DNA from: a virus
Virus record (IMG/VR): IMGVR_UViG_3300032331_000813
Coordinates: 20,466-84,465 of that record
Strand: one strand, 5' to 3'
Length of the DNA stretch: 64,000 bases
In this document: positions 2,656-53,475 of the stretch, in pieces
Layout: each line of letters begins with the position of its first letter
How positions within the stretch are numbered: the first letter of the stretch is position 1
Program-made: the position numbers and the translations under genes
The notes under the pieces: model-generated
Told to the model about the DNA's origin: nothing
The model's input: the letters and a program-made list of their open reading frames with translations, nothing else
Database searches by the model: none

Positions 2656-5600
2656 ATGGCTACAAGTTCAAGACAATCAGCAATATTTGGGGTTAATGAC
2701 TGGAAAACCATCTACCAAACGTTCCAGCAAGCAGATTTTCGTAGTTACGACTATGAAACCCTACGCAAAAGTTTCATAGATTATCTACGCTTATACTATC
2801 CTGAAACCTTCAATGACTATATTGAAAGTTCAGAATTCATTGCATTGCTTGACGTTATGGCATTTATGGGTCAAGGTCTTGCGTTCCGTAACGACTTAAA
2901 TTCCCGTGAAAACTTTATTGATACTGCTGAACGTAGAGATAGTGTTATCAAATTAGCTAACTTAGTAAGCTATACTCCAAAGAGAAATTTAACTGCACAG
3001 GGTTATTTAAAAGTAACAAGTATACGCACAACTCAGAATTTAGTTGACTTAAATGGATTTAACTTAAGTAATGTTCCTATATTATGGAATGACCCCGCTA
3101 ACCCAAATTGGTTAGAACAGTATAATACAATCATCAATGCTACACTAGCAAACACACAAAAAGTGGGTTTACCTGGGAACACCGCTCAAATTTTAGGTGT
3201 AAAAACTGACGAATATACAATACAAATACCAGCAAATACTACCCCAGTCATTCCATTCTCGTCTACTGTTAACGGTATGAATATGGGATTTGAATTGTGT
3301 AGCGTAACTACAGTAGGTGAAGATTACGTGTATGAGTTGCCACCTGGCCCTACCAATAGATTCAATATGTTATATCGTAATGACAAATTAGGTTACGGTA
3401 GCCCAAACACAGGATTCTTCTTTTACTTTAAGCAAGGTTCATTGCAAAATTTTGACTTTAGTTTGCAAAATCAAATATCTAACCAAGTAATTAATATTGG
3501 CGATATTCAAGGTGTTAATAACACTGACGCATGGCTATATCAAATAAGTCAAACTAATGGTGCGTTTGGATTATGGAAAAAAGTAGATAATATTTACGCT
3601 GACGCTTATTTACAAACTGAATCATCAGTTAGAACTATATTTTCAGTCAACAGCAGATTTAATGACCAAGTAACTTATATATTTGGTGATGGCGTATTCA
3701 GTGAAATACCAATTGGTAATTTTAGATCGTTTGTTCGTGCCGGTAATGCATTGACTTACACAATTCAACCTACCGAAATGCAAGGCATTTCAATTGCTAT
3801 CAGTTATGTTAATCGTGTTGGTCGCACAGAAACATTGACAGTTGGGTTAAGTTTACAAACTCCAGTGACTAATGCTCAAGTTAGAGAATCATTGGCTGAA
3901 ATTAAACAACGTGCTCCAAGTCGTTACTACACACAGAATCGTATGGTTAACGGAGAAGATTATAACAACTTCCCTTATACTTTGTATAGTTCTATTATCA
4001 AATCAAAATCTATTAATCGTAGTAGCGTAGGTGTAAGCAAAAATCTAGACTTACTTGATCCTACAGGTAAATACTCAAGCACTAACAGTTATGCAAACGA
4101 CGGTGGCATTTGGTTAAATGATACTGAAGGATTTTCATTATTAAACATCACTGATACCGCTAACATAATTTCGTTTTTGACAGGCACACTTGCAGCTATA
4201 TTATCTGATAGCGGGTCACAACAATACTATACTCAGAATTATCCTAGGTATGCAGTTACTACAAGTTCAGATGATGGTAGAGTATATTGGAATACTAGTA
4301 CAGTAGATGCAAATAGTTTAACTGGTTATTTTTATAATAAATTAAATGGTTCAAATGTGCCAATTGCTGCAGGTATATATTCTACTATCAATTTAAAATA
4401 TGTAACACAAGGTGCAATATTGAAATTTGTAGCACCACCTAGTTACTATTTTGATAAAAATAATAGGCTAGTGTACGGCATTGCAGGACCGTCTGATGTA
4501 AATCATATATGGATTACTGTATTAAATGTAGTTGGCGACGGGTACAATAATGGATTAGGTCAGTTTGCTAATGGAACTGGTCCAATAACATTGAATGGAT
4601 TTGTACCAACAGGTGCAGTGTTAACAACAGTAATTCCTGCTTTCAGTAACACGTTGCCTAACACGGTTGTACAAGAATGTATTGTTAGACTAGAGTTACA
4701 ACAAAATTTTACTCTAGTGTTTAACAACGCACTAACTATTGTAGAAGATAGATGGAGTGTAGATTTATATTCTAGTTCTAATTATTTTGTAAAATTTACA
4801 AGTGTGGGATACAATCGTTACACCGTTACCTATCGTTCGTTGAAATACTATTTTGGTAGTGTAGCAGATACTAGGTTTACATATGAATCTGGAAAATTAG
4901 TATATGATCCGTTCTCTGGCGTGATTCTACAAGACTTTGTTAAAGTTTTAGAAACTAATACTCAACCAGATTCTAATTACCCTCTAAGCAATTCTATCTC
5001 TGCAAGTATCATTGGTCAAACAGTTGAGACTGATGGTTATATTAATGATTTTGAAGTTGAAGTTGCTAGTATTGACGTAAACAACAGAACCATAATTAAT
5101 AACCCTGACTTCTTTAATGAAATTACTGGATATGTTACTGGTAACTCTAACATTGGGATATACACTTTCTTTGAAGAAGTACAAGATGCCATTAACTTGA
5201 CTCGCACTCAACTAATAGCTAGTAGTACAGTAGCATATCAATATGCTACAACCACTCAGATTGAAGTTGTTAAGTATGATTATCCCGAAGGTCAATTGTT
5301 CTATGCATACAATGAAAATGTATTTTATATAACTGTTCAAGATCCTACTGTCACTACACCTGCTTACAGTTTAGTAACGCAATCAAGATACAGTATGGCA
5401 TATGGTCGTCAAGGGTTGCAATTTCAATATCGTCATAACAGTAATAATACCACACGTATTGATCCTGCAACAACTAATATTATTGACCTATATGTAGTTA
5501 CGCAAGCATACTATACACAATATCAGAATTATATACAAGATATTACAAATACTGTACCAATGCCGGCAAGACCAACTATCAATGATTTGGCAGCAGCATA

Positions 5601-6030
5601 TCCTCAAATACAAGATTACAAAATGTTAACTGATAGCTGTATTTTAAATAGTGTTGTTTTTAAACCTTTGTTTGGACCCAAAGCTGCATCAGCATTAAGA
5701 GCAACTATAAAAGTTATTAAAAATAGTAGTACAAACGCCAGTGATAGTGAAATTCGTAGTGCTGTATTAACTTCAATGAATAGTTATTTTAATATTAATA
5801 ATTGGAATTTTGGTGACACTTTTTACTTTAGTGAATTGAGTGCATACATACATTCTGAAATAGGAGAATATGTAAGTTCTTGCGTATTAGTACCTAATGA
5901 CCCTAACTTAAAATTTGGAGATTTATATGAAATTAAATGTTTACCTTACGAGATTTTTGTAAACGCTGCAACCTCAAATGATGTAATCGTTATTGCTGCT
6001 TTAACACCAGCTGAATTACAAATAGCATAA
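2656..6030 (+). CDS. baseplate wedge protein, T4 gp6-like
   Basis: N-terminal gp6 signature (DYETLRKSFIDYLR...ENFIDTAERRDSVIKLANLVSYTPKR), FGDG motif, ESLAEIKQRAP...QNRMVNGEDY motif, and C-terminal WNFGDTFYFSEL. Confidence 0.85.
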   Translation: MATSSRQSAIFGVNDWKTIYQTFQQADFRSYDYETLRKSFIDYLRLYYPETFNDYIESSEFIALLDVMAFMGQGLAFRNDLNSRENFIDTAERRDSVIKLANLVSYTPKRNLTAQGYLKVTSIRTTQNLVDLNGFNLSNVPILWNDPANPNWLEQYNTIINATLANTQKVGLPGNTAQILGVKTDEYTIQIPANTTPVIPFSSTVNGMNMGFELCSVTTVGEDYVYELPPGPTNRFNMLYRNDKLGYGSPNTGFFFYFKQGSLQNFDFSLQNQISNQVINIGDIQGVNNTDAWLYQISQTNGAFGLWKKVDNIYADAYLQTESSVRTIFSVNSRFNDQVTYIFGDGVFSEIPIGNFRSFVRAGNALTYTIQPTEMQGISIAISYVNRVGRTETLTVGLSLQTPVTNAQVRESLAEIKQRAPSRYYTQNRMVNGEDYNNFPYTLYSSIIKSKSINRSSVGVSKNLDLLDPTGKYSSTNSYANDGGIWLNDTEGFSLLNITDTANIISFLTGTLAAILSDSGSQQYYTQNYPRYAVTTSSDDGRVYWNTSTVDANSLTGYFYNKLNGSNVPIAAGIYSTINLKYVTQGAILKFVAPPSYYFDKNNRLVYGIAGPSDVNHIWITVLNVVGDGYNNGLGQFANGTGPITLNGFVPTGAVLTTVIPAFSNTLPNTVVQECIVRLELQQNFTLVFNNALTIVEDRWSVDLYSSSNYFVKFTSVGYNRYTVTYRSLKYYFGSVADTRFTYESGKLVYDPFSGVILQDFVKVLETNTQPDSNYPLSNSISASIIGQTVETDGYINDFEVEVASIDVNNRTIINNPDFFNEITGYVTGNSNIGIYTFFEEVQDAINLTRTQLIASSTVAYQYATTTQIEVVKYDYPEGQLFYAYNENVFYITVQDPTVTTPAYSLVTQSRYSMAYGRQGLQFQYRHNSNNTTRIDPATTNIIDLYVVTQAYYTQYQNYIQDITNTVPMPARPTINDLAAAYPQIQDYKMLTDSCILNSVVFKPLFGPKAASALRATIKVIKNSSTNASDSEIRSAVLTSMNSYFNINNWNFGDTFYFSELSAYIHSEIGEYVSSCVLVPNDPNLKFGDLYEIKCLPYEIFVNAATSNDVIVIAALTPAELQIA

Positions 6031-6052: not shown

Positions 6053-9000
6053 ATGGCAACAAGAATTAGAACATTAAATTTTCTTCCAGAAATATTTAAA
6101 ACACCAACCAATAATCAATTTTTATCAGCAACATTAGATCAATTAGTTGCTCAACCCAATACGGAAAAGATAGAAGGTTATGTTGGTAGTAAATTTGGAT
6201 ATGGTGTAAATCCAAACGATAATTATGTAACTGAACCAACAAAAATTAGAACAGATTATCAATTAGATCCGGGTGTAGTTTTCTTAAAAGAAAATGATAC
6301 TACTGCAAAAGATTTTATTAGCTATCCGGGCATCATTGATGCATTAAAATTAAAAGGTGGTATAACTGAAGATAACAGTAGACTTTTTAATAATCAATTT
6401 TATTCATGGGATTCTTTTACTGATTTAGATAAAATCATTAACTTTAGTCAGTACTATTGGGTACCTAATGGACCAGAAAGAGTTGTAGTACAATCAAGTG
6501 CAATTTATAGTTCGGTACAGTATAATGTACAATCAGAGACTGCATATTATGTAATTTCATCTAATGAAACTTCACCTGAAATTAATCCGACACTTACACT
6601 GTTAAGGGGCGGTACTTACACATTTAAAGTAAATCAAGATTCTAATTTTTGGATACAAGGCGTTCCTGGATTGACTGGATATAGTCCTGTACAAAGAAAT
6701 TTACAAACACGTAACGTTTATGGTGTTGAGAATAATGGAATAAAAGATGGTACTGTTACCTTTACTGTACCACCCAAAGATGCATTAAGTGAATATTATT
6801 TTGTAAACTCTACTACAGTTGATGTAGTGTCTACTTTACCATTTGCTCAAGTTAATGGTGCAACTGTAGATTCTATTGGTGGTATTGATGGTGTTACTGA
6901 ATTAGACGGATTGACCGTAATGTTCTACAACACTGGAGTAGAAAATGAGATAGCTTATACTAATCAATTTTTTGATCAAACACAGTTTGATGAAGAAGGC
7001 GGTGTACCTTATACTAATTCTTCTCAAAGAATAACAAAAACTATTACTGATAGTAATAGTTTAACCAATGAATTTACTTATATAAACGATACTGGAATTA
7101 GTGACTTTCAAGCGAATGATGCTATAACTTTTGTAGGAACATTAATTGGCGGGGTTGTTAAAAACAAAACATATTATGTAAAAGAAATTACATCTTCAAA
7201 CACGTTTACTATATCATCAACAGTTAATGGAAATGTTGTTGAATTGACAGATGCTACCGGTGGTAGTATGACTGTAAGAATACAAACTAGTTATCCTGGC
7301 ACTGATATTTTTGATAATAACTTTGAAGGTGGATTCTATAATCAAGTAAGTAGAAATTTTTATTCAGTTACGTTATTAGGTGATGTAGATAATCCAGTAA
7401 TTCAATTAACTCGCTTATCTTCTATCCCTGCTAAAACTACTATCACTGCTGAGTTTGGAGCACAATGGGCTTCAATTAATTTCTTTCAAAATTCATTAGG
7501 TGAAATTCAACTTCAACCATATAACAGTGCTATACTAGATACATTGTATTATCAAGATGCGACTACTTTATCTAAGGTAGGTCAACTTAGAATAATTGAC
7601 GATAACTATACTAATTATATTGACGTTGATTTTGATATTTTGGGAAAGAAAAACTATACGGCACCAAATGGTGTAGTATTTACCAATGGATTAAAAATTA
7701 TATTCCAAGGTAATATCTATCCATCTAAGTATGAAAACGTAGAATATTATGTAGAAGGCGTGGGCAGTGCAATTGAATTGATTCCGGTTGCTACTTTAAT
7801 ATCTCCGGGATTGTTTACCTCAGGTGAGTATACTCCTTACGACTCTACCCCTTATGATTTGGGTAACTATGATTCTAATTTATATGTTCCTATCAATCCA
7901 GATTATCTTACTATTGCTAGAAATTCTATCAATAGAAATGCATGGTCAAGAAGTAATCGTTGGTTTCACATTGACGTAATTAATGCAACGGCTGCATATA
8001 ATAACACACCTTCTTTAATAACAGAATACACAAATTTAGAAAATAAAGCAAAACGACCAATTATTGAATTTTATCCTAACATAAAATTATTTGATTCTGG
8101 TGCAGTAGGTAAAGATCCTATAGATTTTATTGATACTAGGACTACAGATGCATTTACATATGTAGCTGGTCAATCCTCATATTTTCCAGATGTTGCCGGT
8201 TATACAGGTTATAATGCTACGATTGCACCAGTTACCTTAGCAGACACCTCAGTGATAGCAACAAACGTATATGGATATACTGATACTATAGCTGTAAGTA
8301 GTGTTACAGGTTTATATGTCAATGACACCATAAGATTCACTGTTCCTATAATTAATGCTGTCTCACTTGTTGTTGGAAAAACATATGTTATAAACACACT
8401 TGGTTCTACTAATTTTACACTAGTTGGAGCATTATCAAATACAGTAGGAACATCTTTTGTTGCTACTGGAGTAGGAACTGGCACCGGTACTGCAACTACG
8501 TTTGGAGGACTTACACCAAACACTACTTACTATATAACTAGTATAGAAACAAATGTTCAAGTAAGTTCTAATGTGTTTAAAGATTTGATTACTGTCTCTT
8601 TAACTAGACAGGGTGTAAATGTAAATCTATCAAACTCAGATACATTGAGTATTGCCACATCAATATATCATTACAGTACTTCTATTACAGTTCCTACTAG
8701 TAGTATATCTGGGCTATTTGAAAAGAATCAATACGTATCAGACTCGACCAATTATCTACCTAGTGTAACATTAATAAGTAATGTAACAACGGTCAATGAT
8801 AACACTATAATAACTGTTACTTGGACAGTTCAAGCAGTTATTCCTGCAACTTCAATTGCTTCAATTGTCTCTGCTGATACTCCATTAGATAATTATGGAT
8901 TATTTGATGGTGCTAGAATTGTGTTTGCAGCAGAGACTACTGATTCAGTTAGGAATAAAATATATATTTCTAGATTTGCTTCAATAACTCCAAATGGAAC

Positions 9001-12000: not shown

Positions 12001-15000
12001 AGCTGAATTCTTATATTGGGCACAAATGGGTTGGGCTCCGGGTAGTATTACTACAATAAATCCGGCAGCATCAACATTGGTCATCAACAAAGAAAGTTCT
12101 ATTGTTCAACCATTAACATTGCGTCAATTTAATTTTGTATTAAATCAAAATCTATATCCTATTCAAGGTAGCGATATGGCAGTGGTTCGTGAAGATACTG
12201 CGTTTTCAGTTACTCCGTTGAATGTTGGTGATGCTATTAGCTATGGACAATTCAATATTAGTAACATTGAACATGGAATTGTATTTGACAATGTAACATT
12301 GTTTAATGATATAATTTACAATCTTTCAACTGGTTTAAGACAAAATCGCATTTTTGTTCGTGGAAGAAAAACTGCTGAATGGAACGGCAATGTAGACGCA
12401 TTTGGTTTTATTTTAAATCAAGATAATATCACTGAATGGACTAAAGAAGTAAAATATACTCAAGGCTCTATTGTAAAATATAAAAACAAATATTGGACAG
12501 CTATAACAATTGTACAAGCAAAAGAAATATTTGACGAACGTGAATGGGTTGTAACAGATTATGACAAAATTCAAAAAGGATTATTGCCTAACAGCCAAAC
12601 ACGTTCATACGAAAGCACATTGTATTATGATACAAACAATGCTAATTTAGAAAATGATGCTGACTTACTTAGTTTTAGCTTGATTGGGTATCGTCCAAGA
12701 GATTACATGGCTTTAGCTGACTTAACTGATGTGACGCAAGTTAATGTTTACAAAAACATGATTAAAGAAAAAGGCACACTAAATGCAGCAAGTGCGTTTA
12801 AAGGTGCAACTTTGCCGCAAGGTGGAATTAAATATGATATTTACGATAATTGGGCTATATTATCAGGGTCATACGGTGGCATATTAAACAATAATTTTGT
12901 TGAGTTCAGATTGAAACAATCAGAACTAACTGGTAATCCTTCTATAGTAGGATTAACTAATGGCATATCAATTAACGGGGTTCAACAAGAAGTACCTATA
13001 TACAGTTTGTTTAATTATGGTAGACCATTAGACTCAGTTAACATATTACCTACTATACCTAATACTCAACCATCAACGTTATATCCTACCTCAGGGTATG
13101 TAAATTATAATGACGTTACAATGGCTAGTTATTTCTATTCAGGGTTAAGTGCAGCACAAAACTATACTGGAAAAACTATACCTATTAATCAATTCTATGT
13201 AAGAGATTATGCTTGGTTAGCAAATTACCTAGCAACTTGGCAAGTATATACCCCTGCTAGCTTAGGTACAGTAATAAATGTAGACAATAACTTAAATGGT
13301 ACTGTGACGGTAACATTTTCTCAAGCGCATAATTTAAAATTATATGATCCATTTGCTATAGTTAACTTTGCAGTTGATATTGACAACTATTATATAGTAG
13401 CAGCCGTCCCAAATCCGCAGACAGTAATAATTAATCTATCACTAAATCCTTCTATCAGAAACATAACTGGTCAAGGTATAGGAATGAGAATGCAAAGTCA
13501 ACGTGTAGCTACTGCACCTGAAATTGATAATCTACCACTATTAGATAATGAATTCAACAAACTTAAAGTTTGGGTAGATACTAACAATGACGGAAGTTGG
13601 GCTGTATATCGCAAGAGTTTGAATTATCAATATGACAATGAAATTATCAAAGCAGCTTCACAAAATTTTGGTAGTGCAGTTGCATACACTGAAAATTTAG
13701 GGTATTTGATAGGTGATAGTGCGTTGGGTACTGTTTATAGATATCTGTATAACGTTGAAGAAAATGTTTATACTTTATCACAAGCTATCAGTCAAGGTGG
13801 TTCATTTGGATCATGCATAACATATGTTGATGATTTGTTTGCAATATCACAACCAACACACCCGTCAGAAGTACCTGCATTATACATATATCAATTAACA
13901 ACTAATGATATAATTAATACGATAGCATTATATCAAACTATTACTGCTCCAAATGGGGTAACTAATTGGGGTAGGTCTACTGCAATGTCAGGTGATCAAA
14001 ATTGGTTATACATTTCAGATACTGATAATGCTAAAGTTTATGTGTATCGTAGGTCTTCAACTACTCAACTATATGTTCAAGTTAAAACTTCAAACGGATT
14101 ACCATTGACATTAAGCGTAGCTGAATTAACATCAGCAGATTTGTTTGGCTATTCAATTGCAACTGATTATTATGGCGATACAGTAGTAATTGGAGCACCG
14201 TTTAAGGATTATACTAATGATGGTACTACGAACAACTATGGATATTCTTACGTCTTTAGTAGAACTGTACAAAATTTTATAGCACAACAAACCGGTCAAC
14301 CTTACAAAGAATTGACTTTTCAATTAGGATTTACTCCTGAAACTGTTGTGCAAATTGCTACTTCAACTGATGCTGCAACTGATAGAATTACAGTAGCTGA
14401 TACCAGTGCATTTAATGTAAATGATCCGGTAGTATTTTCTGGCACCATATTATCTAGTGGTGCACTATCCGCTAACACTGTTTATTATATAAAAACTATA
14501 CCAACATCAACTGCGTTTACTGTTTCAAGAAAAATAGGAGGGAGTACTTTCCAATTAATAGATGATACTGGAATACCAGGTATGACCGTGACTGTTCAAA
14601 CTACTCCATTGTATGTAACAATAAATGGTGAGTTGTTGTCTGATAAAAACTATGCGGTTACTGGTTCAGTGTTAAACATTTATACTGATTCTACTATTTT
14701 AGTAAATGCAGGCGACTTGATTAATGTGAGTGCCCCTTCTTTTGTATTAGCACAAACTTTAACTGATGAAAATCCACCTAGGGTAGGAGTTGAGTTTGGT
14801 TCAAGTATTGATGTTAATGCATTTGCCAATGAGATATTAATTGGCGCACCATATGAGTTAAGCAGTAAAAATAATGAAGGTGCGGTACATCGTTATACAA
14901 ACGGTGGTGAAAAATACGGTATAGTTATTGGTTCATCTAAGTGTGCTATAACCTCAGAACAAACTATTTTTATCAATGGGTTTGCAGTTATTTTACAAGC

Positions 15001-18000: not shown

Positions 18001-21000
18001 AGTAGACAATACAATTGACATTGGTAGTACTGAATTACAAACTGGAGATTTAGTAGTATATACTGTTGGCCCTAACTCAACCCCTATAGGTGGATTGAAA
18101 GAAGGTCAAAGATATTATGTAAATCTTCTAGAAACTATACCTGCACCAATCATTGCACTTTATACTGAATATCTATCTGCGATTGAAGATCACGATAGAG
18201 TTATATTAGATAGTACTGGCACAGGGACTCAAAAGTTCAGCATGGGTGCTGCTGCAAATGCAATAACAAATGCAACACCAATAAGAGAAAATATAATATC
18301 ATTAAGATTTGATAGAACAACTTATAATTCTCAAGTAGTAGAGTGGTCACCATTTGGATATTATGGTTCTTTCTATGCTGGAACATTGCGTAATCCCGAC
18401 AAAGTAGCATCATCTGCAATTACTTTATACAGTAACACTCCGCCTATTGAAACTATATTAGCAAGTGCTCAGGGAGCAACATTTGAAATTTTAGATACTA
18501 CTAATCAGCAAACACTTGAGTGGTCATCAAGAACAAGAAATACAATGCAGACGTATGGTAGTCTTTACCCTACTGAAGCATATAGAAATGCAATTCGTAT
18601 CGACCCGTCAGACGGTGGTGTAGCAGTAGAAGGTTTTATTGGATCAACAATTGGTTTCTATATAGGAATGCCAGTTAAGTTCAACGGGTCAACTATTGGT
18701 ACATTGTTAGAAGATGATGTAACTTACTATGTTAAGTCATTAGTTAAGTTACCAAATACAGGAACATCAACTAGTGCAACCAGAACCAATGCTTCAAATA
18801 ATACTATTACAGTAGCTAGTTCTGTTAATTTTAAATTGCAAGATACTGTTGTGTTTACTAGTGCTACGCAGATTATATCTTCCGGATATTTTGTTATAGG
18901 TCAAACGTATGAAATAACAACAGTAGGAACAACTAACTTCACCTTAATAGGTGCTGCTTCAAACGATGTTGGTACTGTGTTCATTGCAACTGGAGTCGGC
19001 ACAGGTACTGGAACTGCGGAACAGAGAAGTTTGGGCAATGTTATATATCTTGAAACATATTATATCTTGAGTAAACCGTCTGCAACTACAGTTACACTCT
19101 CACAAACATTAGGTGGTAGTGTATTCAAGTTATCTAATGCCACTGGTGTAATGACAATGATCAGACCTGATACTGATGTATTAGAAGATACTGGTTTTAC
19201 GATTTCTGATACAGTTGACGAGAATGGTAATCCAGGCGCAGTTTATTCTCCTAACATTGGCATTGGTTCAGTAACTATTGCACCTGCAGGATTAAAATTA
19301 CTAACAGGCAATCAAACTAATCTTGAGATAATAACAATTAATTATTCTGGATTAAGAAATACTGTAGCTACTACAGGTACTACAAACACAGTAACTGTAT
19401 TGTTGACTGCTACAGGCGAAAATGGTACTACTGGATTCTATACTGGACTTCCTATATTCTTTGTAGGTAATACGTTTGGTGGAATTGTTGAAAACATTAG
19501 TTATTATGTAACTACTGTTATTGATGCACAGACATTCACAATGTCTCCTACATCAGATGCACCTTTTGCTATTAGTTTCACTGAAACCACATCAACAGAT
19601 AATTTAGTTGTTTGTGGAACAAGTAGTACTGAAAATATTACTTTAAACTTGTCAGTCAATGAACCTATCATATTTACTGACTTCGTATTAAAAGCAGGTT
19701 ACTTTACAATAGGACAAGTATATTCTATAGTTTCTGTAGCAGATAATAACGGCGGTGCTACTACTGATTTTACTTTGATTGGTTCAAGTTCTAACGCTAT
19801 TGGTACTATATTTACTGCTACTGGTGTAGGCACTGGAACCGGTACTGCTACCCCAACAAGTCCTTCTACTACGTTTGGTGGAATAGTTTTTGGTAAGACA
19901 TACTATGTAAGACAAAAGTTTGCAGACGTTGACCCAATTGATTTAGTTACAACTACATACTCTATTTCTATAGCTGAAAGCGTAAATGGAGATGCAGTAA
20001 CATTAACTAATACGGTTGGTTCATGTTTGTTTACAAGTCAAAAAGATACACTACCATTAACAACAGCGACAGGTTCTATGACTATGAATGTTGCATTACC
20101 AGTAAGTCCTGGACAAGTTGATGGACAACAGTTTACTTTATACAACACTTCTAGTCAGTTAGCGGGCAAACAAGGAACAGTATCTAATCTATTGAATAGA
20201 GAAATAACTTCTACTTTAGATACAGTTAATAGAATTTGTTTATCTTCATTTAGCGGTGGATTAACTGACATATACAATAATTTACAATTTAAAGTTTCTA
20301 CACCAATTGGTGGATTGACTAATGCTACCGTTTATGCTGGTAGTTTCATTGTTGGAAATGTTTATACAATAACTTACATTGGTGATACAACTCAATCTAA
20401 TTGGAATACTATTGCAGGTACTACTGGTGTAGTATACACTATAAACAGTGTGTTTACTTGTGCAGCAACTGGAACTTATATTGGATCACAAACTGGATCT
20501 GCTGTAAGAGTTTATAAAATAACAGGAACTGGAACTACCTCAGTCAAAGTTATTGAAACTCAATCTTCTGGAAATTGGTTAAGGTTAAACGATGACGATA
20601 ATCCAAATACTACTGATGTTTTATATGTGGGTATGCCTTTATATTTCAGCGGTACTTCAGTTGGTTCTGTATCATTAGGTGTAGTGTATTATGTGTTTAG
20701 TATAGATTCAAGTCCACCGTCAGGTACAGGTAGATTCTCAATATCAGAAGTATCTGATTTGTCTAGCCAATTTACAGTAACTGACGATGTTGGAGTAATG
20801 ACCGGATCAGGAGATCCTTATGTAACAATAACTTCTCCTGCGTCATTACTAGATTCTAATCAAATAGCAACTTTCTCAAGTGCTCCTAGCACTGCAACAG
20901 TAACAGTAACTAACGGCTCATCATTTACAAATGGTATGGCAATAAGATTCAATACTACTGACACGTTACCTACTCCGTTGAAAATAAATGTAACTTACTA

Positions 21001-24000
21001 TATTAAGAATCTTAGTGGAAATACATTTAATATAGCATATAGTGCTACTGGTTCACTTATATCATTGTCATTAAATGGTACCGGAGTTCAAAGAGCATAT
21101 GCTCTTCCTGTTATACTAACACAAGTTACAAAATCAGATCCGGTATTTGATGTAAGTTATATTTTAGGTGGTTACAGAACAATAATTACAAATCCAGGTT
21201 CAGGGTATGCAATAAACAATGCTATTACTGTATTGGGAACATCATTAGGTGGAACTACTACTAACAATTTAATACTAACCGTAACTTCAATCAATTCTGA
21301 AGGTGGTATACTATCAACTACTGCAAGTGGAACCCCACCTGGACCAGAAAATCAATACTATTTGAAAGTATTGTCAGTAAATCAAATGGCTGTGTATTCA
21401 AATGCTATATTGACATCACAAGTAAGTGGACAAAATTTCCCTTACAAGGGTATAACAACTATTACAGCAACTGCCACAACAGCAGCTACTGATTTAATTA
21501 CTATAAACAGTACTAGTGATTTCAGCGTTAATGACCCAGTTGTCTTTACTGGAACAGTGTTTGGAAATATAGTTTTAGGAGCTACGTATTATATCACTGG
21601 GTATGGCCCTACAATTAGTGCTGGCAGTTTTGTTGCTACAACACAATATAGAATTAATTCATTAGGCACTACTGATTGGAACATTGCAGCAGGAACATAC
21701 GGTGTTACATATAGTGTAGGAGATGTGTTTACTGCTGTAACAACAAGTTCAGGTACAGGTAATGTTACTTTGTTAACAAGAATAACGATTTCACAAACAA
21801 TTGGTGGTTACACATTTGAATTAGCAGATGCTACTGGTTCCATGACAATGGCTAAATCAGGTGACTATGCATTGTTACCGGAACCATTCTACTTCAGTCC
21901 TAGTATTGTAAAATACGGAACTCGTTTATATGAATGCGTAGTCAGTAATAATGACAATGAGTTTATTTTTGGTAAGTGGGCATTACTAGATACCGGAAAT
22001 AGAAATGTAAATGCACTAGACAGAATTGCAGCATACTATCAACCAACAGTTAACATGCCGGGTGTTGATTTAACCCAACTAGTATCAGGTATAACATATC
22101 CAAATAGCACTTATTTAGGTAATGCATTCGCACCAGCAGATGAATTCACATTAGATACAATTTTAACTGATAGACCATTCTACCCAACTGGTGTAGATTT
22201 AGAAGCCATCATTTGGAATGGTGTAATTTATATGGCTGCTGCTCAAACAAGCGAATATAGTTCAATTAACATGAGTGTAGATACTGATAATTGGACAATA
22301 ACAAAGATAGCAAGAAATCCAATCAATATAACCAGTCTATTATATGTTAACGGTAACTATTTGATGACAGCTAATAATGGAGCAACACCGTTATTGATAA
22401 GTGAAGATGGATATCAATGGATAACTAACGGTTCATTTACCCCTTTCAGTAGTACACCATGGGACGTTGTTTCATATGATATATCTTCAATGTCTATGCC
22501 GGCGTTCTCATTGAATGAGTCAGCATATTACAATGGTATATATGTTGCTGTAGGTGATAATATTGTGTCATCAACTGATTTATATGCATGGGTAGAAAGA
22601 TTTACATTTGGTGGCACTTTGACTACTAGTGAGTTTAAAGGGGTTTGCTATGCAAATACCGCTGGATTCTCTGGTTTTATGGCAGTTGGTTTAGGACAAA
22701 TAATTACGTACAACAATGTTGGCAATGTGACTAATGTTGGTATAGTCTATACTAGCCCTGACGGTATTACTTGGCAACAAGTTCCAATGAATATTACAAC
22801 TGATTTAAGTTTTAATAGCATTGCAGCTAGTGGACAAACAATTGTCGTAGTGGGTGATGATGGATTAATATGGACAAGTTTCAACGGAAGTATTTGGTTT
22901 AATCAAACATCTCCGATAACATCTAACTTGAACAATGTAAGTTGGAATAGTGTTAATAATACATTTATGGCAGTTGGTGATGATGGTGTGATATTATATA
23001 ACTCTACAGGCACTGGTATAACATGGACAAGACAAACTTCAGGTACTACGGAAGATTTACAAAGTTCAGTATGGAACAATTCACGTGGTGAATATGTCGT
23101 AGTAGGATATAATAACACTATATTAACAAGCACTATCGCAGCAACAAGTTGGTCAGCACATGCTAAATTTATAAATCCAATAGCAGTGTATGATGTACAA
23201 GGCGATGATTTCTCTGCAGGATATGGCCCAGAAGAATTAGTTGGTGGTGTTGTAGAAGATACCATAATGATGACTGTAGCAACTCGTCCGGGTACAAACT
23301 GGGATGAAACAATTTATCAACATACTGGTTATAATGTAGTTTCTGAAGAAATATATCCAATCAATGGTACTCAAACTGATTATAGTTTTGCTAATTTAGT
23401 ATCTACCCCTGCACAATTGAGTGTATTTGTTGTGAGTTATTTGACTGGAACAAGTACTACTCTTTATGAAGGAGCCGATTATTATATTGACTGGATTAAT
23501 AAAACAGTATCGATATTTACCCCATTGACTTATGTATCATCTACTTTAAGAGATAGATTGCGTATTGATGTATATGAAGTGGGCAACGGAGACCAATTAG
23601 TTAAAGCAAATACAGAAACTGATCCACTAAGAATAAATCCTGTTACAGGATTTAATGAGATATATGTAAATGCTAACTATAGCGCAACTATATACAAAGG
23701 TTCAGGATTAATACGTCCTAGTACGGCTCCAATTGTTACTACTGCAACACACACTAATAGTTTTGATAATACGATAACATGTACTAGTGTTACTGAGTTT
23801 GTACTTAATGGACCTATATACTTTTCTGGATATGTTTTTGGCAATATAGTTGAAGATACAATTTATTATGTTAAATCAATAGGCGGAGTATCAAATCGAA
23901 TTACTATTTCTGATAGTTATAATTCAAGTACAGGGGCTGCAGGAGATACTTTCATTTTATCTTCTGCGGACGGAAGTATGGAAGCAGTTATACAGTCTAC

Positions 24001-27000
24001 AAACAGTGTAGTATGGACACCACCGGCTATATATCATAATGGATCATTATTGATATCGGGTATTACTGAAACTGTTTTGAGAACAAAATCAAGTACTAAT
24101 ACCATCACAGCTATTACTACTGGAGGATTGATTGTAGGTACACCTATCGTATTCAGCGATACTATATTTGGTGGTATAGAGCCTGGCATAATATATTACG
24201 TAAACTTAATATATGACTCAAACGAATTTACAATATCTGAAACTTTGGGCGGTTCTGATTTAGAATTAACCGATGCAACAGGTAGCGCAATATTCATAAC
24301 AAATGACTATGCTATTGGATTTGCTGATAATGGAATATCTGCGGCAGTAATATTCTCTCAACTGTATGACACAACGGTTGACTATATAAGTTACACATTG
24401 TTTGGTGAAACATTCCCTATTCAATATGGATATACTATCCCGCAAGTAGAAACATTTGTTGGTGACGGGGCGACCTCTACTTTTGCTTTAAGTAATTATA
24501 TATCAGATGACAGCGTTGTTAATGCAATAGTAGAAATAGACGGCATTCGCAGAACATTAGCAGAATATACTATTAGCACTATTACTAATAGTATTACGTT
24601 TAAAAATCCTCCTAGTGCAAACCCTGCGACTACAACAGCTGGTAATTTTGTAGTGGGAACTTCTTATCGTATTGCGTCATTGGGAACAACTGATTTTGTA
24701 TCAATAGGCGCAACTTCTACGGCAAATGTTACTGGTTCTATTAGTGGTACATCTTTAACTATTACTAGTGTTACTTCAGGATTATTAGATTCAGGAATAT
24801 GTATAACAGGTACGGGAATAACAGCTGGCACATATATTACTGATCAAATATTAACGCAGACAGCGGGCAATTTTATTGTAGGGATGCCATATAGAATAGA
24901 GTCTATTGGAACAACTGATTTCGTAGCAATAGGTGCAGCTTCAACAGCGGTTGTAACCGGTACGATTAGTAATGGTTTAGGTAGCGCAGGTAATAAACTT
25001 AATGTTACTGCTTCAACTTCAGGTGCGTTAGCAGTAGGCACTTACATAACAGGTACGGGCGTAACCGCAGGAACATATATTACTGCTTTGGGTACAGGTA
25101 AAGGCGGAATAGGAACTTATACTGTAAGTGTGTCACAAAATGTAACTTCAACTACTGTTACAGGTCAACCGTTAGTAGGTGAAGGATTTATTGCAACTGA
25201 CATAGGATCTGGTACTGGAACTGCAACACAAACTAATCCCGGTGGAATAGGTTTATACACGGTTGATACTTCACAGACAGTGGCAGAAACTGCAATAACA
25301 GGTCAACCAACTGTTGGTACTGTATTTACTGCAACTGGCGCAGGCGCTGGAACTGGAGTTGTAACTGGGCTAGTAAGTGTCGCAGTAACGACATATAACT
25401 TAACCGAACGTCAGTATCTTAGCACTCAATATAATATTACTGGTATCACACAGACTAGCCAAGGTTCTGTAACAGTAACTGGTAGTCATGGGTTAGAAGA
25501 AACATATGATATGCCAGTTAATGCAGGCTATTTTGATGTTGGACAATCTTACACTATACAAACATTGGGTAATACAAATTGGACAAGCATAGGTGCAACT
25601 CAAGTAACTGATGCTACCTTAACAAAAGGCACTCAGTATATTATTAATACTTTGGGAACCGCAGATTGGACTTCAGTTGGTGCAGGTGGAACAGTAACTG
25701 GTAGTATATCTAACAAAACTATCAATGGGGTAAATACTGGAGTACTAACTGTAACTAGCGTATTGACCCCGTCGATTGTAGTGACTGATTTGGTTATTGG
25801 ACAAACTTATACAATTTTATCATTAGGTACAACTACTAATACACAATGGAATACTATTGCAGGCACTACTGGAAAAACATATGCGGTAGGTAATAGAATA
25901 GATGCTCAAGTAGTCGGGACTGGTACTGGCACTGTAGCAATGAATATGGTAGCAGTTAATCAATTCCTTAGCAGTAGTAGTGTTACTGTTACTGCTGGTA
26001 ATTTTAATATAGGAACTTTATATACTGTTGCAACACTCGGTACTACTAATTTCGTAGCCGTAGGTGCAGCTTCAACTGCGGTAGTAACTGGAGTTATTGG
26101 TGTTACTGTTACAGCTGGTAGTTTTGTAATAGGAAATTCATATTTTATTACAACATTAGGGACTACTGATTTCACTTTAATTGGTGCAAGTTCTAATACA
26201 GTTGGTGTTACATTTATTGCTACGGGCGCAGGAACTGGTACTGGAACTGCAACTAGACCGGGTATAGCAGGTACTACCCTTAATGTATATGCAGTTACTT
26301 CAGGTACATTAGCAGTTGGCACTTATATAACAGGATCAAATGTAGCAGGTGGCACTCGTATTACAGCATTGCTTACTGGAACAGGTGGAATAGGTACATA
26401 TACTGTTAGTACTTCACAATATGTAAATTCAACTATAATAACAGGACAGCCGGCGGTTGGAAGCACATTCACTGCTACTGGAATAGGAACTGGAACTGGA
26501 ACTGCATCCTCAAGCATTGCAGCAAGCACAACTATAACAGGTTTCTTAAGTGGTTCAGGTGGCGTAGGTACGTATACATTGAGTAGTCCACAAATTATAA
26601 CAAGTAGAACCATGACTCTTGGTCCTAATGTAGGGGTATTATTTACCGCTACTACTAATAGTGATCCATCAGGTTCAGGCGGATTTGCATATGTAGCTAG
26701 CTTTACTGCAACTGGGGCGGGTACTGGTATTGGTGCCGGAACAATAGCGTATAGCACAACAGATTTTTCTACATTACAGTATTGGTTAAGTACATCAGCA
26801 GGAGGCACCAGTGTATTGGGTGTAAATTATCCAATAGTATTTGGAACAGTTATACCAAACTGCGGTATAACTGCCGGAAGAAGATATTATGTAACAAAAA
26901 TATTAGATTCTTCAAGATTTACGGTGTCTACTCAAGTAGGGGGAGCATCTCCTAAATTAGAAACTACTACCGGTACTATGATTGGCACAATGACTCAATT

Positions 27001-29323
27001 ATCAGTTTCACCGATTGACAACATAACTAATACTATAACACGTCCTGCATTTAGTTTATCTATTGCAGAAATAAAAGGTGGATCTCTTGATATAATAAAC
27101 GTAGCTGCAACTACCGTAGGTAGTCAGTATGTTATTGTAGCTTTAGGAAACACCAATTGGAATACAGTAGGTAACACTACAGGAATCACTTATGCTGCCG
27201 GAGATTTATTGACTGTAGTAAATGTTGCTACTGGAACTACCGGTACTGTACAGCTTGCTGATGTTATAAAAGTACCGGATGTATATGGTTTGGCAGAAGG
27301 TCAAGATGTTATATTTAAAATAAATCAAACTAACGCTGGTTCATTTTTAGTTGGGTATGCGTATGTTATTAATGATTTAGGTAGTACCACACAATCACAA
27401 TGGAACACTATAGCAGGTACCTCAAGTGTAATATATAAAGTAGGAATGGGATTCACTGCTGCAACTGTTGGTACTGGTACTGGAACTGCTGTGTTAGTTG
27501 ACGTAGGTGGATTGAATACATCCGGTGAAACTTATTTTGTTAAAACAGTTATATCTAACCCATCAACATTATACGGAAGCTATTTCATAGTCGAAGATCA
27601 ATATGGCACAGTACCAACATTGTCAACTACTATGTATGAAATTGTAGCATACATTGGTGGTACTCCTACTATCAGAATTAATACAGCTACTGATACAAAC
27701 TTAATACAAAATAATGTAGTACGTATTGACGGTACGATTGGTTCAGTTCAATTGAATAATAATATATACTATGCTAAGATCATACGCAATAATATTATTG
27801 ATATCTACACAGAGCCATACAATCCAGCATTATATGCAGAAAATTACCCAGTAATATCATCTTACACTTATGTGTCTGGTGGTTACATTTGGGTAGATGA
27901 GTTGTTCACAGTCGCTGACACTTACGCAACTGCATCTAGTTCAAATGGTAATAGAATTACAGTTGCTGATACTAGCATGTTAGTACCGGCTACCCCTGTG
28001 TATTTTACACAATCAGGTTCTGAGATAGGTGACGATTTATTAGGCGGAGTAAAAGCTAAAACTGAATACTATATATTACAAGTAAGACCTGAAATCGCAG
28101 CTGGTAATTTTATAGTAGGAAACTATTATGAAATTTCTATTCTTGGCGATACTAATTGGAATACCATGTCTGGTATAACTTCAGTAAATGCAGGTTCATT
28201 TGTAGTAGGATATACATATCAAATTACTTCAGCAGGTAATACTGATTTTACAACTATTGGTGCAACATCAAATACAGTAGGCGTAATTTTTGTTGCTACT
28301 GGAGTTGGTTCTGGTACCGGAACTGCTAATATAATATACGTTGCCGGTGATGTTTTTGAAGCAGCATCTGCTGGTAGTGGTACTGGATTTGCTTTGGGAT
28401 TACAAGAATTTACTATAAGTGAAAAGAGATTCCCAGATGAAGCTGAAGTCACGTTAATCGATGATAGTTCAAGTGCTATTGAAAATACAATACACGTATC
28501 ACAATTCCAACAAGTTAATGTTGATAGATTGTGGGTAACAATTAACGGTTATAGAGTACCGTCATCATCATTAAGATTGAATCCTTATAATAATTTAAGT
28601 ATTTTAGCTACAGTAAATACCGGAGACGATGTAATTATTACTAGCATGATGCCTACAGCTACACCAAATGAAGAAGTGTATCTATTAAACGTGCCAATGG
28701 TAGCAGATTCATCAGTGTATAGGGCAAACACACAAACTAGAACATGGTTGGTTGAACCACTAAGATACGTAGATGACACTATTTATTTAAATGACATTAG
28801 TAGAGTTACGGATACCCTTACACAAGTATCAACGGTTCCTGCTGAGTTAGATGGAAAATACAGCATAGGTGTTGTTGGTACTAAGAACACGATCACTAGC
28901 GTAACTGTTTACAACAACACAACTGACGCATGGATAGATCCAGCTGTATACTCGCTTGTAATAGTTGATTTTGCTCCTATCTTAGAAATCGACAGTGAAG
29001 TTTCTGAGGGAGATTCAGTCACTATCACTATTATTGAAGGAAGATTATTGTACATCAATGGAGAACAGATTGGATTTGGAAAGTGTGACTTAATAAACAA
29101 CACCGTAACTGAATTATCTAGGGGAACAAATGGAACCGGGCAGCAAACTTACATACCGTTGTATGCTGAAGTCTTTGGTATGTTACCATCTAATCAGATG
29201 ACCAGTGTATTATATTCTGACACATGGAACCCAATCCCAGGAATTTACAATACAGTTGACGGAGATCCATTGCAGATTGCATATACCCAAGGTGCAAACT
29301 TCTTGCGAGGCGACATTAATTAA
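6053..29323 (+). CDS. giant (7756 aa) multidomain virion/baseplate-associated protein with beta-propeller regions and many repeated small modules
   Basis: Uninterrupted 23.3-kb ORF after gp6; Thr/Ser/Gly/Val-rich. Contains FG-GAP-like repeats, Asp-box repeats (SxDGxxW) and about 16 copies each of two short modules. Confidence 0.85.
8354..28396 (+). repeat. dispersed ~48-55 aa protein module 'A' (AGxFxVGxxYxIxxLGTTxFxxIGAxSNTVGxxFxATGxGxGTGTA), about 16 copies within the giant ORF
   Basis: Copies at about 8354, 18872, 19685, 20330 and 21614; two in 24632-25366; five in 25517-26740; then 27092, 27329, and two in 28094-28396. Confidence 0.85.
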
Positions 29324-51903: not shown

Positions 51904-52000
51904 TTTTTTCAAAACTATCTATTATAAAATTTCTCGTGAATACAAGTATCGTAAACGTTTGAAAGAATTGCGTAAGCGTGATCCATTTATCTACAAATGA
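51890..52000 (+). CDS. 36-aa basic microprotein (MFIIDFFKTIYYKISREYKYRKRLKELRKRDPFIYK)
   Basis: Fills the gap exactly and overlaps both neighbours (ATGA coupling with the carbamoyltransferase); absent from the ORF track because of its size. Confidence 0.65.
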   Translation: MFIIDFFKTIYYKISREYKYRKRLKELRKRDPFIYK

Positions 52001-53475
52001 ATTACATAGGCATATCTGCTGGATTCCATGACGCTGCTGTTAGTGTAGTTGATGACCTTGGTAACATTTTGTTTGCTGGTCATAGCGAACGCTATAGTAA
52101 GATTAAGCACGACAAGAATATATGTGAAGAATTATTAATTGATGCCCTAAAACATATCAATTCAGAATACTTACAATATCATTATTATGAACGCCCTTGG
52201 CTAAAATCATTGCGTCAATTACGTAGTGGTGAAGGATTTAATTGGCCGTCATGGGAAAAGATTTTAGGTTCCGCTTACGACCAAATGGGCACACCCAAAA
52301 TACATACTCATAGTCACCATCAATGTCATGCCGCAGCAGGCTTTCAAACAAGTCCTTATCAAGATGCTACTGTTGTAGTAATTGATGCCATAGGAGAGTT
52401 TGATACTATTACTATATGGGATGCATGGTATGACAATGAAGGTAACGCAAAATATAAAAAATTATGGAGTTTAAAGTACCCGGATAGCATTGGACTATTC
52501 TATTCAGCAATGACTAAACGAGTTGGATTGCGTCCACTCGATGAAGAATACATTCTAATGGGTATGGCAGCATACGGAGAACCCAATCATATTGCTGATA
52601 TGATCAATGATTTAGTAGATAGAAAAGATATATTAACCTTTAAGCAGAATCTACACACTGGTGTTAGTGAAGATTTCTTAAAAGATGCTGATATAATGGA
52701 CATTGCTAGTAGCAGCCAACATTTGGTTGAATACATGATTACTAGAGTAATAAATAAAGCTAGAACAATGGGTCGCAGTAGAAATTTAGTATACGGCGGT
52801 GGGGTAGCATTGAACTGTTTAGCAAACAGATTGCTAGGGAACTTTTATGAAAATATTTGGATCATGCCTAACCCAGGTGATGCTGGCAATAGCCTCGGTG
52901 CGGCGTGTCTTGGGTACAATAGTAGAGTTAATTGGACTGATGCTTATCTTGGTCATAACATTCCTAGCAAGTATCCTGTTAACGGTTTACTTGATGTGTT
53001 ACTTACTGATAGCATTGTGGGTGTCGCATCAGGACGAGCAGAGTTCGGCCCGAGAGCATTGGGAAACCGTAGTCTCCTTGCAGACCCAAGAGGCAATGAG
53101 ATAAAAGATAAAGTAAATGAAATCAAACGCAGACAAAAATTTCGACCTTTTGCTCCGGTCATTCTTGAGGAGTATGCTCATCAGTATTTTGATATGCCTA
53201 AGCACTGGGATAATAGTAGGTATATGCAAGTCATCAGCCGTTGTAGGTCTCCTGAGTTATTTCCTGCTATTGTTCACTATGACTGGACTAGCCGTGTTCA
53301 GACTGTGCCGAAAGATGGATCAGGAATTAGAGAACTGTTAGAGAAATGGTATGTAATGACTGAATGTCCAATGTTATTGAATACTAGTTTAAACATACGC
53401 GGCGAGCCAATGGTGAACAATCGTGATGATGCTGACAGATTCGAAAAACTGTACGGGGTAAAAGTTTTGTCATAA
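51997..53475 (+). CDS. carbamoyltransferase, NodU/CmcH/TobZ family
   Basis: GISAGFHDAA, HHQCHAAA, VIDAIGE, GGVALNC, GDAG, EFGPRALGNRSLLADP, RPFAP and LLNTSLN. Confidence 0.93.
   Translation: MNYIGISAGFHDAAVSVVDDLGNILFAGHSERYSKIKHDKNICEELLIDALKHINSEYLQYHYYERPWLKSLRQLRSGEGFNWPSWEKILGSAYDQMGTPKIHTHSHHQCHAAAGFQTSPYQDATVVVIDAIGEFDTITIWDAWYDNEGNAKYKKLWSLKYPDSIGLFYSAMTKRVGLRPLDEEYILMGMAAYGEPNHIADMINDLVDRKDILTFKQNLHTGVSEDFLKDADIMDIASSSQHLVEYMITRVINKARTMGRSRNLVYGGGVALNCLANRLLGNFYENIWIMPNPGDAGNSLGAACLGYNSRVNWTDAYLGHNIPSKYPVNGLLDVLLTDSIVGVASGRAEFGPRALGNRSLLADPRGNEIKDKVNEIKRRQKFRPFAPVILEEYAHQYFDMPKHWDNSRYMQVISRCRSPELFPAIVHYDWTSRVQTVPKDGSGIRELLEKWYVMTECPMLLNTSLNIRGEPMVNNRDDADRFEKLYGVKVLS

Follow-up and report, generated by a model that had tools for sequence, protein, structure and literature searches.

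Small beta modules nested in one another's loops in a giant protein, probably a virion structural protein, of an uncultured jumbo phage

In T4 gp18-like three-domain proteins of contractile phage sheaths, domain I sits within domain II and domain II within domain III, with the inserts projecting outwards. Recursive insertion is defined by the order A1-B1-C-B2-A2 (PMC13114784), and the published six-level example is Si3 of the cyanobacterial RNA polymerase beta' subunit (PMC13114784, PMC11515920). Its HABAS/SBHM domains lie one within another and are in part domain-swapped (PMC11515920), and an elongated structure has been described for it (PMC10895346). For a 2026 survey covering 2.7 million domains, the six-level Si3 serves as an example of complex nesting; the survey reports that insertions are mostly single-level and that inserts are smaller than their hosts (PMC13114784). 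Here we analyse a window of 64,000 nucleotides, bases 20466-84465 of the 84.5-kb IMG/VR viral contig IMGVR_UViG_3300032331_000813 (CheckV completeness 15%), which carries an open reading frame (ORF) for a giant protein of 7,756 residues (aa; residue n begins at window base 6053+3(n-1)). Three small beta modules, termed A, B and C, recur in this protein as complete in-frame inserts in surface loops, both of each other and of an F.GDG-type parent domain. The nested stretch is probably the hypervariable C-terminal region of a giant structural protein of the virion, and its loop inserts would form out-and-back arms.

The nests of the giant protein share with T4 gp18 that they are inserts within inserts in a phage structural protein, and differ from it in that gp18 has two levels only, made of unlike and larger domains that are fixed across the family, and is neither modular nor recursive. 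With Si3 (RpoC2) they share that small beta domains lie in loops of each other's copies; Si3 is reported to reach six levels, is described as elongated and not globular, and was built by accretion within its lineage (PMC13114784, PMC11515920, PMC10895346, PMC10120043). Unlike Si3, which is built from one domain family and belongs to a cellular enzyme, the giant protein combines three module families, each without a Pfam match, with the F.GDG-type parent, is a predicted virion protein and carries several separate nests per chain. Moreover, hosting in it is heterotypic and reciprocal (A in B, B in A, A in C, C in C), and a host may be smaller than its insert (A, of 46 aa, hosts B, of 66 aa), contrary to the size rule of the survey (PMC13114784). 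Two elements of recursive insertion are found: host sequences are interrupted by a complete second domain, as seen in the coordinates of the halves and in orthologues with empty sites, and inserts in turn carry inserts, to two levels or more, in nest 1, in C[C[A]] and in C[A'[A]]. A preliminary description of the window, made from its sequence without database searches, had taken nesting of about six levels to be undescribed, which the published Si3 contradicts; the statement may hold for phage structural proteins, and in the literature we found no description of nested insertions in phage fibres or virion proteins, while the motifs of A and B met only chance matches with DNA primers there.

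Complementary module halves in bracket order

We found 2,260 relatives of aa 6133-6900 and used the 150 best of them to build module profiles. These contained 270 uninterrupted external copies of A and 69 of B, so that both exist as uninterrupted modules, and the resulting profiles (46 positions for A and 66 for B) include no window sequence; the profile of C was built from 39 external copies (81 positions). On the giant protein the external profiles match as N- and C-halves, with complementary profile coordinates and in bracket order (Table 1). The preliminary description had read the first nest as A[B[A[B]]] inside an F.GDG-type domain, and this order is borne out by the complementary half coordinates, by an orthologue in which the parent domain is empty (see below) and by a bracket parser, working with separate N-half and C-half profiles and a stack, whose output for nest 1 was A[B[A[B[]]]]. 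Junction linkers in this nest are 0-4 residues long. All three stretches that the description had singled out lie in frame within the single giant ORF, on the + strand.

Within aa 6101-7500 there are 9 A-N, 8 A-C, 4 B-N and 4 B-C half matches; 200 composition-preserving shuffles of these residues gave 0.005-0.025 half matches per sequence, and the reversed sequence gave zero. When bracket partners were joined in silico they aligned end to end with the module profiles, at 69 bits for A1, 67.5 for A2 and 71 for B1 in nest 1, and at 55 for A6 and 78 for B4 in nest 2. These scores are close to those of the whole modules A7 (79 bits) and B2 (85 bits), and the re-testing after excision that had been suggested at the outset came out in favour of split modules. 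Module A is interrupted always at one loop (profile 27-30), module B at about four loops (after strands 1, 2, 3 and 4) and module C at about three. A hosts B and B hosts A, which makes the recursion reciprocal.

Nest 2 had been read as A3[A4[B3[A5][A6[B4[A7]]]]]. The parser assigned it a depth of 6; its outer closings and two of its junctions are weak, and we describe its depth as about five to six. The third reading, A[A] at 28094-28396, was confirmed as A'[A], where A' is a Trp-containing variant of module A, and this pair is additionally enclosed in a C module (nest 3). Besides the nests with C that are listed in Table 1, the C profile detected a further C[A] in the giant protein at aa ~4240-4370. 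Within the whole 84.5-kb contig, a profile search found A, B and C modules confined to the giant ORF.

Table 1. Nested modules of the giant protein, and the genes that carry and precede them, in window coordinates
Feature	Window bases	Strand	Basis
Nest 1: parent F.GDG-type domain, N-terminal part, aa 6133-6193	24449..24631	+	42% identical to uninterrupted domain in orthologue L017
Nest 1: A1 N-half, aa 6195-6222	24635..24718	+	A profile match aa 6196-6222, N-terminal part
Nest 1: B1 N-part, aa 6223-6265	24719..24847	+	B profile 1-41 on aa 6224-6264, E 3e-13
Nest 1: A2 N-half, aa 6270-6297	24860..24943	+	A profile N-terminal part on aa 6271-6297; AlphaFold2 confidence (pLDDT) >90
Nest 1: B2 whole module, tip of nest 1, aa 6298-6371	24944..25165	+	B profile 1-66 on aa 6299-6370, E 3.5e-25; pLDDT >90; EF-Tu-domain-2-like barrel, Z ~7
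Nest 1: A2 C-half, aa 6372-6392	25166..25228	+	A profile 30-46 on aa 6375-6391; AlphaFold2 pLDDT >90
Nest 1: B1 C-part, aa 6393-6417	25229..25303	+	B profile C-terminal part, to aa 6416; joined-halves score
Nest 1: A1 C-half, aa 6418-6439	25304..25369	+	A profile 28-44 on aa 6419-6435; joined-halves score
Nest 1: parent domain, last strand, aa 6440-6452	25370..25408	+	L017 comparison
Nest 2: A3 N-half, aa 6490-6517, and A4 N-half, aa 6520-6545	25520..25687	+	A profile, E 1.5e-11 and 2e-6
Nest 2: B3 first part, aa 6546-6576, weak	25688..25780	+	8 bits alone; motif spotted by eye
Nest 2: A5 whole, A' variant, first insert in B3, aa 6578-6628	25784..25936	+	A profile
Nest 2: B3 middle part, aa 6629-6646, weak	25937..25990	+	4 bits
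Nest 2: A6 N-half, aa 6647-6674	25991..26074	+	A profile; joined-halves score
Nest 2: probable first strand of B4, aa 6675-6683	26075..26101	+	shares the A-to-B junction motif of canonical A[B]; gain of 1.5 bits
Nest 2: A7 whole, innermost module of nest 2, aa 6687-6733	26111..26251	+	A profile, E 5e-23
Nest 2: B4 remainder, aa 6736-6797	26258..26443	+	B profile 7-66, E 3e-22
Nest 2: A6 C-half, aa 6798-6819	26444..26509	+	A profile
Nest 2: B3 C-part, aa 6820-6857	26510..26623	+	37 bits
Nest 2: A4 C-half, aa 6858-6880, and A3 C-half, aa 6881-6899, weak; N-half partners ambiguous	26624..26749	+	~10 bits each
Nest 3, C[A'[A]]: C N-part aa 7290-7344, A' N-half 7348-7376, whole A 7377-7427, A' C-half 7428-7449, C C-part 7450-7480	27920..28492	+	
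C[C[A]], aa 4437-4679: outer C aa 4437-4503 and 4663-4679, inner C 4509-4547 and 4606-4663, A 4548-4599	19361..20089	+	outer C: C profile 4-63 and 62-78
C[A], aa 735-864	8255..8644	+	A and C profiles
C[A'], aa 5137-5267	21461..21853	+	C profile 2-47 and 52-78
Giant ORF P0001, 7,756 aa	6053..29323	+	open frame, 7,756 codons; N-terminal body = phrog_10938
gp6-like baseplate wedge gene, directly upstream of giant ORF	2656..6030	+	phrog_10646, E 7e-250

Structure prediction was informative for the inner part of nest 1. With AlphaFold2, run on aa 6133-6460 with a 20-row alignment, the inner A2[B2] reached a predicted local distance difference test (pLDDT) score above 90 over both A halves and over B; the outer modules stayed below 50, because MAFFT places A[B] relatives only on the contiguous inner unit. 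We also modelled the segments that flank this inner unit, aa 6190-6268 and aa 6393-6445, as two chains with a separate alignment for each, and obtained interface scores (ipSAE) of 0.57, 0.75 and 0.57 (median 0.57), where the best of three controls gave 0.01; contacts agreed to at least 94% between runs and partner pLDDT was at least 73. The verdict of the tool is 'weak support': its mark is reached by 58 of 80 solved complexes and by 2 of 110 mismatched pairs, and scores of 0.60 or less comprise 7 of the 80 solved complexes together with both passing mismatches, counts that serve only as a rough guide as own alignments were used. The prior for pairing of the flanks was already high from the profile coordinates. 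For nest 2, MAFFT alignments set the A-N of relatives on A7-N rather than on A6-N, a placement that would bias a model of its fold, and for nest 3 an AlphaFold2 model from an 8-row orthologue alignment was uninformative (mean pLDDT 42.5).

The fold of B can be compared with known structures. B superposes on EF-Tu-domain-2-type barrels of many chains with Z 7.0-7.4 and a root-mean-square deviation (rmsd) of 2.2-2.6 Å over 72-74 of its ~75 residues, although Z below 8 may reflect merely a common arrangement, and the 50 structural matches listed for B consist of such barrels and of phage proteins. No SBHM/HABAS chain is among these 50 matches, which settles nothing on kinship with Si3. Residues 9-77 of Bridgette gp7 (Arthrobacter phage, 8ECI chain 2), a surface-exposed capsid decoration protein (bioRxiv 10.1101/2022.09.09.507160), also superpose on B, at Z 6.5 and rmsd 2.1 Å, with 32% identity across 65 residues; gp7 differs in being a free-standing, uninterrupted protein of 124 aa, and phmmer found no sequence link between it and B. 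A Foldseek search against the PDB gave no match at E <=0.001, and phmmer against PDB sequences gave no match for B2 and only chance matches for A7 (Rab-1A, E ~0.3). Likewise, Pfam-A had no match at E <=0.01 for A, B or C, nor on aa 4001-7756; an E1_FCCH match on a relative, below the Pfam cut-off, and leads from the Atlas hint at a B-like barrel.

Empty sites in orthologues and spread of the modules

Orthologues of the last 307 residues are encoded on fourteen viral contigs related to this one, with 33-67% identity (above 55% in 10 of the 14). They are collinear with the giant protein over the last 300 to 850 residues only and carry few A or B modules, from which we conclude that the nested region, as judged from these alignments, is hypervariable among orthologues and its flanks conserved. 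In one of them, L017, the F.GDG-type parent domain is uninterrupted, and is 42% identical to that of the giant protein once the 245 residues of nest 1 are omitted; the insertion point lies between a strand ending '...ITFKNPP' and the strand '...VSVAVTTYN'. At the site of nest 3 we found three states, a plain C module in L015-L018, C[A'] in L007-L014 and C[A'[A]] in the window, in which the inserts are cleanly present or absent and the orthologues of the series are 43-67% identical in the adjacent C-terminal domain. The comparison of nesting across relatives that the preliminary description had proposed yielded graded states, from C through C[A'] to C[A'[A]], together with an uninterrupted parent. 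The empty site of L017 and the three-state series show stepwise accretion of whole modules into loops, with levels that, going by the orthologues, are added one at a time. At the DNA level, the insert junctions of nest 3 showed no convincing target duplication or microhomology, the orthologues being too diverged.

Nesting of these modules extends well beyond the window. We parsed 229 module-bearing proteins automatically, and in about half of them the parser reported one or more interrupted modules, although a few unbalanced cases inflate its greatest depths. Among metagenome relatives we repeatedly met A[B], A[A], B[B], A[BB] and B[A[B]], the last of these in the protein P0035. A[B] is a conserved composite unit whose carriers include proteins with gp8-like and Gp10_C matches. 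The metagenome protein P0104 (4,359 aa) has, at aa ~1565-2500, about 13-15 A N-halves consecutively and then about 13 A C-halves of the '[14 protein letters not shown]' type; its bracket parse is nearly balanced at a depth of 13, which exceeds the nests of the window. In BFVD, structural relatives of B, together with one A[B] match, lie on proteins from uncultured phages: an HK97 capsid protein, a side tail fibre, a protein J and a P22 gp10-like protein. As a side observation, in P0167 and its relatives the 139-position Gp10_C profile (PF21939) is spread over 260 residues (400-659), and the A and B modules at aa 452-566 of P0167 seem, by their position, to be inserted into the Gp10_C domain too.

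Shape and role of the arms, and alternative readings

We propose that each insert would leave and re-enter its host at a single loop, over linkers 0-4 residues long, so that the chain would form a two-stranded out-and-back arm. In such an arm an outgoing segment and a returning one would together build each rung as a complete domain, and the tip would be the innermost module. Nest 1 would then be a four-rung arm on the parent domain, nest 2 an arm of five to six rungs with one side branch, and the whole protein a long chain bearing several side arms, the length of which could change by single modules. The preliminary description had pictured a dendritic protein. That the modules sit in loops of each other holds, but a branched tree overstates the case: topologically the nests are mostly unbranched out-and-back arms with a single fork, at B3, which carries two inserts.

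As to function, we hypothesise that the arms hold adhesion-type decoration domains away from the baseplate and make weak multivalent contacts with the host surface, a prediction to which we give an even chance. It is favoured because the region is hypervariable and because B-like domains occur as decorations of capsids and fibres. A hypervariable region between conserved flanks is typical of host-facing parts such as phage receptor-binding proteins. The arms could instead be purely architectural, that is, spacers, braces or length-setters in a very large baseplate with no part in host binding, which would agree with the assignment of the protein to the structural family phrog_10938 and with the Pfam search, in which no binding site or lectin family was detected. 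We consider this unlikely, given that the region varies so strongly among orthologues with conserved flanks and that B-like modules are found on capsids and fibres of many uncultured phages.

Several observations weigh against the nested reading or against parts of it. In nest 1, the outer A1, B1 and parent domain have pLDDT below 50 in AlphaFold2, the alignment being uninformative there, and the fold matches of B are of middling Z. In nest 2, weak scores are found for the closings A4-C and A3-C (about 10 bits each) and for the first two pieces of B3 (8 and 4 bits), and a profile for the putative parent domain of this nest gave no match. It is possible that B4[A7] are in fact siblings, A6[A7, B4], with a depth of 5, as the B4 strand placed before A7 adds 1.5 bits. 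The rod-like out-and-back shape, moreover, is what the topology would suggest. Finally, the pairing of A3 and A4 is nearly equal in its nested and crossed (domain-swapped) forms, at sums of 81 and 85 bits, and A3-N scores 56 bits with A4-C and 44 bits with A3-C. The last point bears on a reading in which the order in the sequence is nested and the pairing is partly swapped between like neighbours (A3/A4, A'[A]), giving an interdigitated body and not a ladder of rungs. Such swapping is reported between the recursively inserted domains of Si3 (PMC11515920). Against it, heterotypic levels (A in B in A) cannot swap, and the inner A7 and A9 are contiguous with a normal short loop, so we hold partial swapping to be rather improbable for this protein.

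A reading without any nesting, in which the halves are independent or circularly permuted units in tandem like beads on a string, has very little probability. Nest 1 can formally be written as (AN BN)(AN BN)(BC AC)(BC AC), but circularly permuted units in a tandem array do not agree with the data, as a C-half never precedes its own N-half and as uninterrupted copies of A and B are frequent among the relatives. B2 is modelled as one barrel at pLDDT above 90 that aligns to EF-Tu domain 2 across both supposed units, and where orthologues lack an insert it is absent cleanly and as a whole. The interruption of B at about four different loops, with different loops opened in B1, B3 and B4, rules out fixed 'A-N+B-N' and 'B-C+A-C' units. 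An assembly artefact, or decayed repeat debris that no longer folds, might be suggested by the repetitive and Gly/Thr/Ser-rich character of the region, and is practically negligible, since the module copies are only 63-71% identical in DNA and thus too divergent to mislead an assembler, the frame is open over 7,756 codons, the inner modules are modelled with pLDDT above 90, and the 2.5 kb of 24400-26900 lie within one contig both in the probable source run and in a second sample of the same study (108 substitutions, no gaps), with a riverine metagenome from another study covering 25349-26900, that is, all of nest 2 (47 substitutions, no gaps).

If nesting with out-and-back arms is what the giant protein does, it would offer phages a third route to a longer appendage, beside tandem repeats and trimeric coiled or beta-helical fibres. 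An insertion into a loop would return the chain to its start and leave the remaining protein undisturbed, which would explain how very large insertions are tolerated in hypervariable host-facing regions. Tentatively, and with somewhat less confidence than we have in an adhesive role, we suggest that reciprocal recursive insertion of a few portable mini-domains could give large phages a general and evolvable means of making virion appendages. A single chain would then make rigid arms, and gaining or losing one whole module would alter their length, tip domain and valency; the depth, about 13 in the relative P0104, would be greater than the six levels published for any protein. The stepwise orthologue series provides natural test cases for split-domain folding, and a host of 46 aa that takes inserts of several hundred residues would be a useful design scaffold and departs from the reported rule of inserts smaller than their hosts (PMC13114784). 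At the same time, annotation pipelines that assume contiguous domains will overlook the A, B and C modules.

Genomic context of the giant gene

The giant ORF directly follows the gp6-like baseplate wedge gene, whose protein is 32-34% identical to those of its closest isolates, the jumbo myoviruses Phosso (Sinorhizobium), Atu_ph07 (Agrobacterium), Yersinia fHe-Yen9-03/04 and Escherichia 121Q. By profile match, the 'virion structural protein' family phrog_10938 covers the first ~3,450 aa of the giant protein (E 2e-165 for its first segment of 2,000 aa and 4e-83 for its second). The same gene order is found in Atu_ph07, where the wedge gene (gp181) is followed by a 4,449-aa 'virion structural protein', gp180 (YP_009611845), that is collinear with aa 1-2300 and ~3200-3800 of the giant protein at 25-32% identity and is without A or B modules and without nests. 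By this comparison the nested region is a lineage-specific addition relative to gp180, and the giant protein belongs, as a lineage-specific and greatly enlarged version, to a family of giant structural proteins of jumbo phages; it is gene order only that points to a baseplate location. The source of the window is an uncultured freshwater jumbo myovirus, distantly akin to Atu_ph07, Phosso and the Rak2/121Q-type phages; beside the riverine metagenome, many freshwater and lake runs contain small shares of it. Searches of the nest by blastn and tblastn against 50,697 phage records gave no match, to which the low-complexity filter of BLAST may have contributed.

Other features of the window were noted in passing. 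The sole Pfam match in the 7,756 residues is an FG-GAP_2 repeat (PF14312, E 1.4e-6) at window 14132-14257, aa ~2694-2735, which hints at a propeller-like domain in the conserved body of the giant protein. A Nol-like carbamoyltransferase gene (phrog_1601, E 3e-93) lies amid late genes at 51997-53475 and is followed by a 1,457-aa ORF (53484-57857) with no PHROG match. Across the window (1-64000) the large ORFs are on the + strand, with one exception, and the cumulative GC skew climbs steadily; G+C is 43% in the first 2 kb and 32-39% in the remainder.

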